The translations under genes were made by a program, and so were the position numbers. 64,000 nucleotides of DNA, taken from the IMG/VR virus record IMGVR_UViG_3300014050_000020; one strand, 5' to 3'. Shown here piece after piece: positions 18,109-31,950 of this stretch. Below the pieces are notes generated by a model. The model did not search any database and was not told where the DNA came from. It saw only the letters and a program-made list of their open reading frames with translations. This DNA is from an uncultured virus (IMG/VR IMGVR_UViG_3300014050_000020) (lineage: Duplodnaviria > Heunggongvirae > Uroviricota > Caudoviricetes). Position 1 is the first letter of the stretch. The number at the start of each line of letters is the position of its first letter.

Positions 18109-19209
18109 TTATTTCAACCCTGCTAGTTTTTTAAGCTCAACAACATTGGTTTCTTTACCAATGTCTTGAGCTTGTTTAATAGCAGTTTTATCTCCGGTCA
18201 CTTCAACGCGGCTTTCATTGAGAACAGCAGGAGCTTTTTCTTTAGAAGTTGCAGTAAGTACAGCCGGGAGATACTTTTCGAATGCAGATTTCAATTTTTC
18301 TGTCTGCACACTTTCTAGAAGTTCACGCATGACCGCTTGCTTCTCTTTAACTAGAGTGCCAAGTAATTCGTCAACTACAACCCGACGATTTTGACTCTCC
18401 TTGATCACGCGGATCTCGCGTTCTTTGGACTCAACAATTTTCTGTGCATCCAATTTGGCCGATGTTGCTTCGGCCAGTTGCTCAGTTTGTTGTTCGATAA
18501 CTTTTCTTAGCTTTTGTATTTCTCGATTTTCGTTAAGATGAGTTAACGAAAATTCGCCTGCAAAAGCTTCAAAGATACGACGTCCAAACATGTTCTCACG
18601 AGCACTTTGGATGTCTTCTTTTAATTGGTTCAATTCAGCACCTAATTTTTGGCTAACCGATTCTTTTACAAGTTTCGCGCTGTTTTTAATAAAACGTTTT
18701 TGTAGTTCAGCCAACTTGGTTTTGGCCTCTGCTATTAAACGTACTTTAGTTTCAACAACTGCTTGCTTATCTTGACTAAATTCGCGTATTTCTTCGGCTA
18801 ATGCACGGATAATAAATTTCTCTAATCGTGCATAGTTTTCTTTTTGAATCTTACGATCGATATGTAACTCTTTGACTTCGTCAACTAGTTTATTAACCAT
18901 AAAATTGTCAAAACGACTAGCTGTTTCCATCATATGATTTTTAATACGCACACGATCTTCGAGCATGGCCTGCTTCTCACCTACAAATTCTTCAATTTCT
19001 TTGGTAAGACTGTCGGTAACCATCTTGTCTAGGGCTTCTACCATTACCTGCTTGTCGTGCTCGTAGCGGCCAGCCATTTCTTCACGAATTTCAGAACGTA
19101 TCTGTTCACGTGCTTCGTTTAACTTGGTTTCCCAGGCTTCATTAATAGCTGCGCGAGTATCCTCGTTTATAATACCGCTGTCTAGCAATGGTTTTAAAGC
19201 GTCAAACAT
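18109..19209 (-). CDS. gp22: Prohead core scaffolding protein (gp22-like)
   Basis: Coiled-coil, Glu/Lys-rich; lies between protease and capsid genes. Confidence 0.85.
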   Translation of the reverse strand: MFDALKPLLDSGIINEDTRAAINEAWETKLNEAREQIRSEIREEMAGRYEHDKQVMVEALDKMVTDSLTKEIEEFVGEKQAMLEDRVRIKNHMMETASRFDNFMVNKLVDEVKELHIDRKIQKENYARLEKFIIRALAEEIREFSQDKQAVVETKVRLIAEAKTKLAELQKRFIKNSAKLVKESVSQKLGAELNQLKEDIQSARENMFGRRIFEAFAGEFSLTHLNENREIQKLRKVIEQQTEQLAEATSAKLDAQKIVESKEREIRVIKESQNRRVVVDELLGTLVKEKQAVMRELLESVQTEKLKSAFEKYLPAVLTATSKEKAPAVLNESRVEVTGDKTAIKQAQDIGKETNVVELKKLAGLK

Positions 19210-25146: not shown

Positions 25147-25995
25147 ATGCAAAATCAATCATTTAATCCCTTGACCAAGTATTTTCGACAGCCGGCGATT
25201 TATTTAAAATTGCCAAGTCAAGGGCAATGGTGGGGCCATAATGCACTAGAAATGCCTGCAAACCAGGAAATACCTATATATCCAATGAGCACCAAAGATG
25301 AGATCTTACTGAAAACTCCAGATGCCTTATTAAATGGTCAAGGTATTGTTGATGTTATTCAAAGTTGCTGCCCTGCTATTAAAAACGCTTGGCTAATGCC
25401 AAGCGTAGACGTGGATGCCATACTTATTAGTATAAGAATAGCCACATACGGCAACAAAATGATCTTCAATAGCAGTTGCCCACACTGCGAGAATAAGAAC
25501 GAACACCAAACCGATCTAGGCGCACTGCTGTCTGATATTGTTTGTCCAAATTTTGACCACATTGTGGAATATAAAGATTTGAAAATCAAACTCAGGCCAC
25601 AATATTATGCCAGCATGAATAAACAGAGTATGATAAAATTTCACGAAGATAAAATTGTCATGGCTCTAAATGACAGTAACTTAGATCCTGATACCAAGGC
25701 AGCTCAGCTTTCGCAGGCAGTAAATAATCTAGTAGACATAGGTATCATTGGTTGTACAGACAGCACAGATTACATTGAATTGACCAATGGTGATCGAGTT
25801 TCGGATTCCGATCACCTCTATGAATTCTATAAAAATAGTGAAAGCGGAATAATAAAAGTCATACAACAGAGAATTGATAGCCTGAGTCAACAGGCTCAGA
25901 AGGATTTCCTGGTCTGCGAATGCGAATCATGCTCTAAAGAATATAAAACCAATCTAATATTTGATTACGCAAATTTTTTCGACAAAGGCTTTTAA
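25147..25995 (+). CDS. Baseplate hub assembly protein/tail chaperone (T4 gp26-like)
   Basis: LKLPSQG...PMSTKDE, D...I.IR..TYG, two CxxC pairs (CPHC, CESC) and NFF near the C-terminus. Confidence 0.8.
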   Translation: MQNQSFNPLTKYFRQPAIYLKLPSQGQWWGHNALEMPANQEIPIYPMSTKDEILLKTPDALLNGQGIVDVIQSCCPAIKNAWLMPSVDVDAILISIRIATYGNKMIFNSSCPHCENKNEHQTDLGALLSDIVCPNFDHIVEYKDLKIKLRPQYYASMNKQSMIKFHEDKIVMALNDSNLDPDTKAAQLSQAVNNLVDIGIIGCTDSTDYIELTNGDRVSDSDHLYEFYKNSESGIIKVIQQRIDSLSQQAQKDFLVCECESCSKEYKTNLIFDYANFFDKGF

Positions 25996-26213
25996 CTCTG
26001 AACTCAGACGCAGAAATAGTAGCTGTCATTGAAAGCTACGAACAAGAGATAAAAGCCTTAAAAACTGAATTATTGCGTATGTGTTGGTATATGCGAGGAG
26101 GTATTTCTTTGAAAGAAATACTCGAATTATCATGTCATGAGAGAGAAATCATTGCAGAAATAATTAAGGACAATTTAGAAATAGCCAAAGACAGTAAAAT
26201 GCCTTTCTGGTAA
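25965..26213 (+). CDS. gp51-like C-terminal module in the -1 frame, probably expressed by frameshift
   Basis: Not in the ORF track. Frame is open from 25965 to TAA 26211-26213: ...RQRLLTLNSDAEIV...LRMCWYMRGGIS...EREIIAEIIKDNLEIAKDSKMPFW. No ATG near its 5' end. Confidence 0.7.
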   Translation, partial: LRKFFRQRLLTLNSDAEIVAVIESYEQEIKALKTELLRMCWYMRGGISLKEILELSCHEREIIAEIIKDNLEIAKDSKMPFW

Positions 26214-26620
26214 TCGAGATTTGCTACGCAAATCTATTTCTTTCGCTGTCGCTCAGAAATCTTTTCTCCTATCCTTAACGGCAAGCATTCATCCAGATAA
26301 TTCAGTCATAATTTGCCCGTTGCCGGGCAAATTATGATGACGCCTTCATCCGAGTGCATCAGCCACTGATTTGGTAGAGTTGATATTGTAATATCAGGAG
26401 GCGGTTGACCGGTACCCCCACTCTAGCCTTTGCATGTCAACGGAACCCCGGTCGCACTAATCAGCAGCACGATCGGAGCCTACGGTTGTTTCTTTTTCAC
26501 AGAGCCGTAACCATTTGAGACCTAAAGTTAGTTTCTATCCTCGCAATGCCCAAGATCTGACGGTAAATGAATACAGCCTCAATGGGAGTCGAGCAGCCCC
26601 GACCAAACAGTATTGCATGA
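26214..26620 (-). ncRNA. Candidate large structured non-coding RNA (or structured cis element)
   Basis: No ORF of 60 aa or more; at least 8 helices including a perfect 14-bp stem with a GCAA loop and two crossing helices; G.U wobbles favour the minus strand. Confidence 0.6.
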
Positions 26621-27130
26621 TTAACGGCAAAGTGCCGCTATGTGTTCTTTGTTTTTTATAAGGAATTGTTCGAGATCGAATATTTGCCAGACTTGGTGTC
26701 GTTGAGATCTATATGTGAATGAGCTAAGGGTCGAATCCCAGGATTGATTATATGGTACTGCTACAAATGTGCCTTTGCGGTTGAACTTCATGAACAGAAT
26801 GTTAAAATCACCCTCGTCAGCTACCTCTAACATCTGTTCAATCCATCCGTCTAATTGTCGACATGAGCCTAAAAATAATTGATGAAATGGAAAATCTGCG
26901 TAATTTTTTGCTTCAGCGTTCATTCTACCAAAACTGGGTCCTGGTACAATGTCGCCTTTGCTGTGCCTAATTTGAGCCTCTGATAAATTGTCTTTTCTAT
27001 GTGTGTTCTTTCCGCCAATATAAGCACCACTATTAGTGACTCTGATGAAACTTTCGCCAAATAGGTCGGATAACCTACGGGCAACATCTCGTTCAAATCC
27101 ACTTCCTTTGTTCTTACTTTTTGATGGCAT
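26621..27130 (-). CDS. Holliday junction resolvase-like PD-(D/E)xK nuclease
   Basis: KNKGSGFER...GDIV...EAKNY pattern; adjacent to gp46/gp47. Confidence 0.8.
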   Translation of the reverse strand: MPSKSKNKGSGFERDVARRLSDLFGESFIRVTNSGAYIGGKNTHRKDNLSEAQIRHSKGDIVPGPSFGRMNAEAKNYADFPFHQLFLGSCRQLDGWIEQMLEVADEGDFNILFMKFNRKGTFVAVPYNQSWDSTLSSFTYRSQRHQVWQIFDLEQFLIKNKEHIAALCR

Positions 27131-27138
27131 GAATAGTC

Positions 27139-27146
27139 TATTTATA
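27139..27146 (-). promoter_or_regulatory. Late promoter TATAAATA 8 nt upstream of the resolvase ATG
   Basis: Exact match to the T4 late consensus. Confidence 0.7.
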
Positions 27147-30000: not shown

Positions 30001-30029
30001 AGTATAACACACTGGCAAGCGAAAATCTA
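30001..30029 (-). promoter_or_regulatory. Sigma70-like promoter for gp47/gp46
   Basis: Minus strand TAGATT-17 nt-TATACT with an extended TGn element. Confidence 0.55.
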
Positions 30030-31895
30030 GTCATGATCGTCACCAATATGCCCACCTGACAACATACCTTGTCGCGTATAGCTGGGAGTTAGATTATTGA
30101 TCTCTAGTATGTCGTCGCGAAGATTCTGATTACGCTTTTCGATGTTGAGCACACGAGTGAAACTATTAGTGATAGCAGCAGTGTAATAGGCAAAGGGATT
30201 TTGTGATTTTGATTCATCGAACTGTAGGCCAATTTGGCTTAGTTGCAGTAGGGCTTGACTTCGCATTTCGTCGTTATAAGTATTGCCAGTGAGGTAAATA
30301 GTTCCGTTTCTTTTAGCTAAAAAACAGCCGTACTGGGTCTTGGGACACCAAACTTGTCCAGAGTAGTCTATAGTTGGTTGATTTGGATGAGTAGCTTTTC
30401 CTTGACCGGGGTGCGATCTACCATTACGCTTACCCCCATGAAAATTAACACAGCTCACTCGGGTATAATTTTTCTTTTGGCTAAACAGATTTATATCATA
30501 ATATTCTACTGGTTTTCCGAAACTAATATGGTGTCTAAGATGTCTATTGGATCGAATACCGGATATTGCACATAAAGCCTGAAAAAGTTCTACATGCTGG
30601 AAATTTTTTTGTACATATCTGCGCTGCCCATTTGATCGCCAACCATCACCATCGATCATAGTGTCGATGAGTAGTATACGTTGTTCTTTAGTTAATTGAC
30701 AAATAAACTCCATATTAAGATTTTTTTCTGGGAAAGTCTCGACAAATTTCTTAGCAGACTCGCGTTTTAGTCTAAATGATATAGTTCGTTTTCTTAAAGA
30801 TTCTGAAAATTTATAATCAAGTTTCTCTAGACAATCTCTAATTCGATCAGCTTTTGTGCCAGAATTTTGATATAGACTTATAGTTTTAATCATTGAATTG
30901 TTATCCCACTCGTAACAACCCTCAGTCATGATCCAGCCGGCTAATTCAACAAAACTGTCTAAGTGTATTTTATTGATCACCGAGTTTTCGGCTGTTCCCA
31001 TTAAGATCAGTCGGTCTTGTTCTAATAAATACTCAATCTTCACTAGTCCTCGTTCGGTGACCATTTTATGCTCGGGGGTGACAAGGCTATCAAACCCTCG
31101 TAACGTCATTTTGTGCATTGGTCCTTGATAATTTCCACGGTAAATATCAAGAATATTAGACCAAGTCATTGCACCGTTGTGATAGCTTAGAATTTTATCA
31201 TTTTGTGTTATTTCGTCAATCCCTAACCACCCACGCTGTGTAAGAGCTTGTGTTTCGGCATCCACACAATAACCTCTCCAGTTTGAACGTGTAGCATAGC
31301 GTTCGCATAATTTCATAAACATATGGGCCAGAGTGCGAGTCATTGTGCCGTGGTCGCGACTCCATTTGCCGGTGATCAAATCGCCCTGCCAGTGACTTTT
31401 GCCCACGCAATAAGGTTCGTATTCAATGGTGACTTTATAATGCTGAAAAGGTGGAAAATTACATTTCATGTATCGAATCGCACCAGGACTTACTTTGGGT
31501 TCATCCTCGTCGTACTCTATATAGATATTTTCGTCATCATCGGTAATGTACAATGCAGCCTGTGCTCGTTTGGTAGCCAAATCATTAACTGGAATATGAT
31601 TCCAGGTCATAACTCGAAATACCACATCGGTAGATTTAATTTTTTCTAATGGTACAGCAAATTCTTCTAATTTTCTTTTTTCCCCAATGCGAACAGCTTC
31701 GTCGTAGGCCATTCGTGCCAATCTTTCTGCTCTATTAGCTCGAGCAATACCAACAGTCGAAGAATTGATGCTGTCCAGGTCCTGGACAATTAAATCATAG
31801 TCGGCACAGTCTGGATCAGAATAACTACAGTAGGTATTTTTACTTCTATGTATTTCTTTCAATATGTCTTTATTGTTAAGATAATTGTGTTTAAT
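30027..31895 (-). CDS. gp55: Late-transcription sigma factor (gp55-like) containing an intein; probable ATT start at 31895
   Basis: NYLNNKD, RSNWRGY|TYNDEM...FDESKSQNPFAYYT gp55-family motifs once the insertion is removed. Confidence 0.85.
   Translation of the reverse strand: MKHNYLNNKDILKEIHRSKNTYCSYSDPDCADYDLIVQDLDSINSSTVGIARANRAERLARMAYDEAVRIGEKRKLEEFAVPLEKIKSTDVVFRVMTWNHIPVNDLATKRAQAALYITDDDENIYIEYDEDEPKVSPGAIRYMKCNFPPFQHYKVTIEYEPYCVGKSHWQGDLITGKWSRDHGTMTRTLAHMFMKLCERYATRSNWRGYCVDAETQALTQRGWLGIDEITQNDKILSYHNGAMTWSNILDIYRGNYQGPMHKMTLRGFDSLVTPEHKMVTERGLVKIEYLLEQDRLILMGTAENSVINKIHLDSFVELAGWIMTEGCYEWDNNSMIKTISLYQNSGTKADRIRDCLEKLDYKFSESLRKRTISFRLKRESAKKFVETFPEKNLNMEFICQLTKEQRILLIDTMIDGDGWRSNGQRRYVQKNFQHVELFQALCAISGIRSNRHLRHHISFGKPVEYYDINLFSQKKNYTRVSCVNFHGGKRNGRSHPGQGKATHPNQPTIDYSGQVWCPKTQYGCFLAKRNGTIYLTGNTYNDEMRSQALLQLSQIGLQFDESKSQNPFAYYTAAITNSFTRVLNIEKRNQNLRDDILEINNLTPSYTRQGMLSGGHIGDDHD
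30282..31268 (-). mobile_element. Intein (329 aa) with a LAGLIDADG homing endonuclease
   Basis: Begins CVDAETQALTQRGW; block B VTPEH; LAGWIMTEG and LIDTMIDGDG motifs; ends VWCP...YLTGN followed by Thr+1. Confidence 0.93.
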
Positions 31896-31921
31896 TTTTT
31901 TCTCCGATAGTTTTAAAGTAT

Positions 31922-31950
31922 ATAATAACACAACATTAATGTGTTTCCAA
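31922..31950 (-). promoter_or_regulatory. Sigma70-like promoter for the late sigma gene
   Basis: Minus strand TTGGAA-17 nt-TATTAT with a TGn extension. Confidence 0.55.

Follow-up and report, generated by a model that had tools for sequence, protein, structure and literature searches.

The largest intergenic gap in the stretch of DNA analysed here (64,000 nt from an uncultured Caudoviricetes virus, IMG/VR record IMGVR_UViG_3300014050_000020; hereafter the window) is confirmed to encode a real, intricately folded minus-strand RNA of ~335 nt, which contains two pseudoknots, carries a 7-nt word written twice, sits beside an interchangeable nuclease, and is common to hundreds of giant bacterial viruses. 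Among the replication, ribozyme and nuclease-partner roles that had been suggested for it from the letters alone, a replication RNA fits best. Our own tentative reading, to which we give a little less than an even chance, is that the element may be a cis-acting, RNA-primed phage replication origin resembling that of ColE1 RNA II. New here are this putative origin model and the proposed join with RNAs of the cultured phages RaK2 and PA5oct.

The window is, to judge from its recognisable genes (portal, major capsid protein, gp26 baseplate hub, gp46, gp47 and a late sigma factor), part of a T4-like jumbo phage. The gap is bounded by the stop codon of a minus-strand PD-(D/E)xK nuclease and by a small plus-strand gene that follows gp26. 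Elsewhere in the window, the late sigma factor gene (30027-31931, minus strand; 634 aa) has sigma matches at 12-226 and 551-623, and the long insert between them is probably an intein; a 366-aa ORF adjoining the major capsid gene (18109-19209, minus strand) has a globin match over residues 88-160, at an E of 6e-5 that is slightly above the cut-off.

Counted from the small plus-strand gene ending at 26213, the gap measures ~407 bp and is, as first noticed, the window's largest (the runner-up has 288 bp); it is also G+C-rich, with 48% over 26285-26620 vs 40% for the window. Most of the helices proposed in the original prediction are supported by conservation and covariation in relatives, both of which were found. 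The stem 26306-26319/26324-26337 has 14 of 14 Watson-Crick pairs and a GCAA loop on the minus strand; it is perfect in the window's copy only, its inner 7 pairs being 89% paired across copies. The stem 26445-26458/26466-26479 has 9 Watson-Crick pairs and four G.U pairs on the minus strand vs one on the plus strand. The crossing 6-bp helices TAGAGT/ACTCTA and GTTGAC/GTCAAC are both in place and make a pseudoknot that covariation supports. Also present are the nested hairpin 26381-26396 (7 bp), the helix of TACGG (26481-26485) with CCGTA (26505-26509) (5 bp), the hairpin 26588-26603 (6 bp, one of them G.U on the minus strand), and TTCATCC on both sides of the 14-bp stem, at 26288 and 26345. One helix failed: the pairing of UUGAG with CUCAA is complete in only 6 of 23 subtype-A copies, and covariation assigns the same bases to helices P3 and P1 instead. 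The minus strand folds with a z-score of -3.0 (0 of 100 shuffles as good) and the plus strand with -2.4 (2 of 100). The strand is fixed by the pairs themselves, since in 28 core pairs (644 cells) G.U occurs 52 times and A.C never, in agreement with the minus-strand RNA that had been predicted. The resulting architecture is listed in Table 1, where the 5′ end of the RNA is placed from helix P1 and the 3′ end would lie at or near the second word.

Table 1. Features of the RNA element, its downstream module and the neighbouring genes (window coordinates).
Feature	Position	Strand	Basis or remark
Whole structured RNA, subtype A, ~335 nt	26288..26620	-	conservation, covariation; RNA-library contig
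5′ domain; P1 (26612-26616/26543-26547) closes P2, P3 and P4	26543..26616	-	covariation
P2, hairpin in 5′ domain	26588-26603	-	enclosed by P1
P3, in 5′ domain	26583-26586 with 26549-26552	-	enclosed by P1
P4, inner hairpin of 5′ domain	26559-26578	-	enclosed by P1
P5, short helix	26525..26542	-	one-sided changes only, 96% paired (weak)
P6/P6a hairpin, conserved CUC internal loop, GAAAAAGA loop	26481..26509	-	top two covarying pairs
P7, long variable hairpin	26445..26479	-	loop 26459-26465 forms pseudoknot PK2
PK2, 3′ strand	26365..26371	-	pairs with 26459-26465
PK1, pseudoknot	26436-26441 with 26404-26409	-	near-invariant UAC(A/C)G and CG around 3′ strand
P8	26420-26425 with 26375-26380	-	alignment, covariation
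P9	26415-26419 with 26397-26401	-	alignment, covariation
P10, variable hairpin	26381-26396	-	alignment
P11, hairpin; loop displays word R1, GGAUGAA (26345-26351), after ACUC	26339..26360	-	
P12, terminal hairpin	26306..26337	-	conserved AUGAC after it; no U tract behind
Second word R2, GGATGAA after ATCT	26288..26294	-	57 nt after R1
Downstream module: A-rich spacer, motif hairpin, GTA-loop hairpin	26217..26262	-	
GAGCG-N-AGCGA motif within a hairpin	26243-26254	-	downstream module; DNA fold
Hairpin with 3-nt GTA loop	26217-26235	-	downstream module
PD-(D/E)xK nuclease, RusA-like Holliday junction resolvase	26621..27130	-	PF24608, E 9e-26; phrog_244; replaceable neighbour
Baseplate hub gp26	25147-25995	+	PF12322; phrog_150; converges on RNA element
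Small conserved gene	about 25998-26213	+	read by eye; resembles family F3; converges on element
T4-type late promoter motif TATAAATA, predicted	27139-27146	-	precedes resolvase

The element was followed through relatives from two directions. With the resolvase as query, 531 relatives were found in IMG/VR and 80 of them kept; once 1 short and 18 duplicate loci had been dropped, related sequence stood directly behind the resolvase stop codon in 58 of 61 distinct loci, and in other resolvase loci the element was found 1 kb further on (one case) or 4 kb away (the L017/L018 contig). Pattern scans for the RNA core gave at least 338 distinct copies with enough 3′ sequence. By eye these fall into three subtypes, A (that of the window), B and C, with a common core and differing 5′ domains; A and B both have PK1, PK2, the terminal hairpin and the same words. 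Mutual information over 55 A-type and 75 B-type copies recovered P6, PK1, P1, P3, P8 and P9 without a prior model. When 23 subtype-A copies were aligned plainly with MAFFT, the 43 pairs selected were 94.9% paired (slid controls, 32-45%), and 24 of them show two-sided changes, which 0 of 500 shuffles reach; this statistic leans toward the selected pairs, since they were picked from well-aligned columns with the alignment in view. P1 and P3 are both 100% paired, with two-sided changes in 3 of 3 and 4 of 4 tested pairs, respectively; the 6 pairs of PK1 are likewise 100% paired in the 23 copies, with two-sided changes in 2. The stem of P11 was read by eye with the help of one covarying pair, and its register varies, giving poor pairing in the plain alignment. 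PK2, which escaped the original prediction, was assessed by swapping partners among the 223 of 232 copies that could be parsed: the helix score with the own partner vs a swapped one was 6.38 vs 4.72 in 124 A/B copies and 5.42 vs 4.96 in 99 C copies.

With a covariance model of the subtype-A core, the window and 4 of 5 further contigs each gave a single strong copy, and subtype-B loci scored 31-32 bits (E 3e-6 to 4e-6); since the model misses subtype C, copy counts made with it are lower bounds. The model also missed a second, diverged copy ~110 kb from the main one in genome G011 (L660, 165300-166500), which has a sub-cut-off Polynucleobacter-1 domain, an altered core and a repeated word of its own; other genomes of the clade may hide further copies of this sort. 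The usual neighbours are absent around the copies L281 and L313, the latter with two tRNA genes ~1.3 kb upstream, and short tandem TAGGCAC repeats lie immediately upstream of the RNA in L281 and L316. By blastn, the three subtypes gave short chance matches or none in 50,697 phage records; when bacterial genomes were scanned with a loose pattern, 3 of 120 loci among the matches listed, which were mostly chance, had a convincing profile match; and the core model found no match in SCTP-2, Phosso or RsoM2USA and nothing below E 1 near gp26 of Atu_ph07 or RaK2. Phosso (L083:1986-3001) and RsoM2USA (L084:4400-5802) have big ORF-free gaps beside the resolvase with a motif of the downstream type, and the gap in Phosso adjoins an annotated RNase HI gene.

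The RNA had been put forward as undescribed and as unlike tRNA, tmRNA, RNase P, introns and hammerhead cores. For the window's copy this holds: Rfam gave nothing on the window at gathering thresholds or at E up to 10, ARAGORN (tRNA, tmRNA) gave nothing, and models of ribozymes, introns, tRNA, tmRNA, RNase P, GOLLD, ROOL and HEARO had no match there. It does not hold for the family as a whole, because the first ~135 nt of subtype B are matched by Rfam RF01718 (Polynucleobacter-1) in 10 of 10 loci and in L075, at 62-118 bits vs a cut-off of 37. RF01718 matched 0 of 10 non-B loci, with the window (subtype A) and subtype C unmatched, and in genome G008 its domain lies directly upstream of the common core. 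Hence the window's RNA is a sister form of the RNA that contains RF01718, and no member of that family. In the table of Weinberg et al. 2010 (PMC2864571), Polynucleobacter-1 is listed as a possible cis-regulator without function; function-less since 2010, it is now placed inside a much larger RNA. One RF01718 copy lies in a Polynucleobacter chromosome (NC_009379.1, about 2,130,800). The literature that could be searched, mostly without subscription papers, holds no account of the full RNA. Fremin et al. 2023 report 10,006 short candidates of at most 151 nt, and pieces of the RNA may be among them.

The most unusual feature of the RNA is its repeated word, which flanks the terminal hairpin P12, once behind ACUC and once behind AUCU. 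Of the 229 subtype A/B copies listed, 28 could not be anchored; in 191 of the other 201, R1 and R2 agree letter for letter, against a shuffled expectation with a mean of 31.6 and a maximum of 52. Eleven different words occur among the identical pairs of the copies listed, the same words are found with either nuclease neighbour, and subtype C carries repeated words of its own. The columns of R1 and R2 covary by identity, and the letters before them stay different, ACTC for R1 and ATCT for R2, so the identity is not plain homogenising of a duplication. The 70 highest-ranking covarying pairs of each subtype include no partner within the RNA that would be complementary to the word; the DNA template is the sole sequence always complementary to both R1 and R2. 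Genome G011 has AGATGAA as both words of one copy (L316) and GCATGAA as both words of a second copy, and in phage Kaldavass, TCGTCAG stands twice in 4 of 5 copies and CCGTCAG twice in one. Words that differ within one genome and yet match themselves are poorly explained by one protein per genome, and these within-genome cases, though only two, speak for pairing of bases in cis, the DNA template being the one constant complement. Mismatches between R1 and R2, including their G.U asymmetry, are too few to indicate a pairing direction.

A twin word could also be a twin protein site. On that reading, which we hold to be unlikely, the RNA would be a free scaffold whose 3′ modules (RUGRC, spacer, word) are two sites for one phage protein, and it would act in trans, with recombination, packaging or host takeover as the process served, in line with proposals made for other large RNAs of phages. 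The repeat does exceed the word, running to ~25 nt; the copies within phage ELP-22 share one word, as do those within RaK2; and the invariant unpaired bases of the core suit tertiary or protein contacts. However, paralogs with different, internally matched words occur in two genomes, an identity of 191/201 is stricter than protein sites usually require, and a DNA-type module downstream travels with the RNA. Moreover, the PA5oct RNA that we regard as a probable relative, ncRNA004, is scarce, making up 0.02-0.08% of phage reads (PMC7318152). In sum, the evidence argues against a single protein partner of the RNA.

The specific partnership with the PD-(D/E)xK nuclease that had been suggested is not supported by the wider survey. 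The resolvase-found loci favour it, since the RNA lies directly behind that gene in nearly all of them, but of 75 loci found through the RNA (among the matches listed), 57 have a SegE-type GIY-YIG nuclease in the slot, 7 have the resolvase and none has both. Likewise, among five genomes the resolvase family occurs in one and the GIY-YIG family in the other four; the GIY-YIG protein is absent from 6 resolvase-bearing contigs; of five further genomes, 4 have no match and the fifth a weak, partial one. In RaK2, Kaldavass and ELP-22 the annotation puts endonuclease VII in the nuclease slot, and thus three unrelated nuclease folds occupy the same place beside the RNA. Nuclease and RNA are often separated by inserted genes, the nuclease gene can lie 1-4 kb away, and the RNA is inverted relative to its neighbours in L272, L278 and L311. 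Since the nucleases are interchangeable and the RNA is sometimes inverted, the RNA goes with the region and not with one nuclease. A guide RNA of the TnpB/IscB type would combine a fixed partner with a variable guide; the RNA has neither the constant partner nor a variable guide-like segment, and its words are indifferent to the nuclease beside them. A role as partner or guide RNA of the PD-(D/E)xK nuclease is therefore very unlikely.

The GIY-YIG protein itself (L286:927-1406; family F0, 57 loci) is a stand-alone protein of ~145 aa matching Pfam SegE_GIY-YIG. Behind gp47-gp46 it occupies the position that elsewhere belongs to the resolvase or to endonuclease VII, and where it is present the resolvase is not. 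It belongs to PHROG 447, which is labelled 'NAD synthetase', and it has relatives in 499 phage records, mostly of cyanophages; it is probably a junction-resolving nuclease that is mislabelled there.

Part of the stretch is present in ten RNA runs from 6 studies. In one of them (X1), a single contig with a depth of 30.5 spans 26295-27004, from the resolvase gene across the element, and the plus-strand genes beyond it have a depth of 3-6. The T4-type late promoter motif proposed at 27139 is indeed there on the minus strand as a candidate promoter. Of the co-transcription with the nuclease that had been inferred from it, this much stands, that one RNA-library contig spans both; a spanning contig is no proof of one transcript. 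RNA contigs give no strand, ends or level, coverage in 3 of 4 runs was limited to part of the stretch or to relatives, and the 3′ part of the RNA was covered in only 1 of 4. The X1 contig stops without a loose end at 26295, immediately before the first base of R2. This and the annotated end of a PA5oct RNA, described below, are two weak hints at an RNA 3′ end at R2 with no terminator, and the contig hint is further weakened because contig ends pile up in the element in DNA assemblies too.

A plainer function would be that of a 3′-end element for the gp47-gp46-nuclease message, which would stop or stabilise the transcript and insulate it from the converging baseplate genes. The RNA lies at the convergence point in most loci (gp26 is in reach in 104 of 122, among the matches listed), and in one run the contig depth drops from ~30 to 3-6 across it. 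We nevertheless consider this quite improbable, as the inverted copies face away from the nuclease, other copies lie in unrelated places (L281, L313 and the second G011 copy), and the structure, with no U tract, goes far beyond what a terminator needs. The contig ends raise another option, a packaging or genome-end signal: 22 of 35 truncated metagenome contig ends fall within ~200 nt of the core (L504-L583). These ends scatter on both sides without a common position, as would be expected if assemblies break where co-occurring strains have a stretch in common, and the copies in PA5oct lie inside the genome. Such a signal is extremely unlikely, and the pile-up as a physical genome end was rejected for want of a common end position. 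What the ends do indicate is that the element is often split in assemblies, since metagenome contigs break inside it more than nearby.

Downstream of the RNA and on its strand, a motif GA(A/G)CG-N1-3-AG(C/T)GA is found in 57 of 59 and 147 of 190 loci (among the matches listed), against a background of 0.003 per 350 nt, with short-loop hairpins adjoining it; this module probably acts as single-stranded DNA. The ColE1 record has the motif once, at 1332, ~135 nt past the origin and on the primer strand, at what we take to be the ColE1 primosome assembly site. The same primer strand has a G6 run twice, at 928 and 1175, and RNA II anchors itself by the pairing of its upstream G run with the template at the downstream G run. 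According to two reports, RNA II hybridises to the template near its 3′ end, is cut by RNase H and primes DNA synthesis (PMC11012335), with both hybrid formation and RNase H cleavage described (PMC6158703).

By analogy, the identity of R1 and R2 would serve hybrid formation, and all steps from the R-loop to priming are ones that we infer on this basis. RNA polymerase would pass R2 while the folded RNA presents R1; R1 would then pair with the template strand at R2, and the resulting R-loop would hold the transcript on the DNA; cutting or release of the RNA near R2 would give DNA polymerase a 3′ end to extend; and the displaced strand would expose the downstream hairpins for primosome or helicase loading. 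The junction-resolving nuclease would adjoin as a member of a recombination/replication operon and not as a binder of the RNA. This origin reading draws on the folded transcript, the self-matching word, the 3′ end near R2, the ColE1-like module and the spaced, co-oriented copies of some phages. Measured against a ColE1-type origin, the fold is present, the 3′ end near R2 is a hint in which an assembly artefact is possible, and the downstream hairpins have a motif common to both in position and strand, a putative assembly site.

Several observations count against an origin. GC and four-fold-site skew follow the coding strand, and in none of 6 contigs does the skew switch at the element (skew is uninformative for co-oriented one-way origins); RNase HI is absent from 5 of 5 near-complete phage genomes, so that the cutting step requires a host enzyme or another route; the flat skew and the absent phage RNase HI both stand against this reading. 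The late promoter motif before the operon does so as well, since replication primers are expected early. Finally, 72,556 plasmid records contain no match for the window's RNA or for a copy from an E. coli island described below; the element is thus not seen as a stand-alone replicon.

The missing RNase HI is also a point for a ribozyme, in which the double pseudoknot would cut or join the transcript that contains it, at the word and guided by R1 or by the DNA template; such a cut might supply the cutting step that the origin model needs, or belong to separate processing. The nested double pseudoknot with its invariant core and the 3′-end hints at R2 would suit it. Against it, Rfam's ribozyme and intron models give no match up to an E of 10, the RNA contigs (4 runs, thin cover) contain no joints or spliced forms, and host RNase H could do the cutting. 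We regard a ribozyme as rather unlikely.

Possible relatives of the RNA occur in cultured phages. The subtype-A core model has a 19-bit match in PA5oct (E 0.004-0.014), the sole one in that genome, and a 14.6-bit match in ELP-22 (E 0.025), each in a gap beside the nuclease, scores that lie within noise because a reverse model built on RaK2-like copies gave a 20-bit match inside a coding gene; the reverse model missed the window's RNA and 5 loci. Anatomy is more telling. By eye, the PA5oct look-alike keeps P6, P7, a fully compensated PK1 and P9, and 11 RaK2-type copies (of 13 examined) have PK1, a 7-12-bp PK2, the terminal hairpin, the repeated word and the downstream hairpins. On position and anatomy, it is quite likely that the window's RNA and those of RaK2-like phages and PA5oct form one superfamily. 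Most of the RaK2-like records listed have 4-5 co-oriented copies, and a TATAAT box precedes 11 of 11 parsed RaK2-type copies. Those of Kaldavass are evenly spread (smallest gap, 56 of 367 kb; P about 0.003), with a P of 0.065 for ELP-22; several spaced copies suit a DNA site better than a diffusible RNA. PA5oct has 3 copies, one of which is ncRNA004, a paralog of the resolvase-side look-alike (79-84% over ~125 nt) whose annotated end is the last base of its second word; in the other two copies the words are indistinct. In Lood et al. 2020 (PMC7318152), ncRNA004 is a transcribed 619-nt region free of ORFs.

Some further sightings may be recorded here. PA5oct ncRNA003 (NC_071039.1 103065-103368) has, by eye, a GCCGAGGTAAGGC hairpin loop like the P4 variant of L029, L030 and L053. 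A RaK2-type copy in an integrase-bearing island occurs in 2 of 5,426 E. coli genomes. The island at the ffs gene (L643:4958-15302) has an integrase interrupted by IS3, one RaK2-type RNA copy, genes matching the candidate defence system PDC-M45, and, upstream of the RNA, a 303-aa ORF with weak family matches only (Lin1244_N, E 0.02).

If the superfamily is taken as a whole (uncultured freshwater and marine jumbo phages, PA5oct, RaK2-like phages and Polynucleobacter-1), its RNA might be a self-targeting primer ribozyme: the looped 7-nt word would pair with the template, by which the RNA would find its own DNA, and the double-pseudoknot core, not RNase H, would make the 3′ end that starts phage replication. 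This reading is rather improbable. A term search of a 2026 jumbo-phage review (PMC13282480) gave no passage on a replication origin. On the origin reading, the element would be a concrete candidate for the start of replication in jumbo phages, with a rescue logic for R1 and R2 built in, and if the link to RaK2-like phages and PA5oct is true, the RNA is accessible in cultured phages. Should the origin role fall away, the RNA would still be large and widespread, with two pseudoknots and a self-matching word in need of an explanation.

Among known systems, several invite comparison. GOLLD, ROOL and others are large pseudoknotted phage-borne RNAs of unknown function that form Rfam families; the window's RNA is like them large, pseudoknotted and phage-borne, but it is smaller, has no Rfam match, and comes with a word written twice and a module of DNA type behind it. 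T4 oriF and oriG are R-loop origins, with several transcript-primed origins spread over a T4-like genome, each made of a middle promoter and an easily unwound stretch and not known to have a conserved folded RNA. The present element likewise offers several candidate transcript-primed sites spread over a T4-like genome; unlike oriF and oriG, it has a conserved folded RNA. The Polynucleobacter-1 model covers only the 5′ domain, with the pseudoknot core, repeated word and downstream module outside it, and PA5oct ncRNA004, unlike the window's RNA, is reported only as a transcribed region without structure or family, its kinship being indirect. With ColE1 there is no sequence homology to RNA II or the antisense RNA I, in the sense of an Rfam, core-model or plasmid match; the element has a double pseudoknot and a variable 7-nt word in place of the G run, and it lies on a phage chromosome, in several copies in some phages. 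What it has in common with ColE1 RNA II is a large folded RNA, the same downstream motif on the same strand, and an upstream RNA segment that is identical to a downstream DNA segment of that strand.
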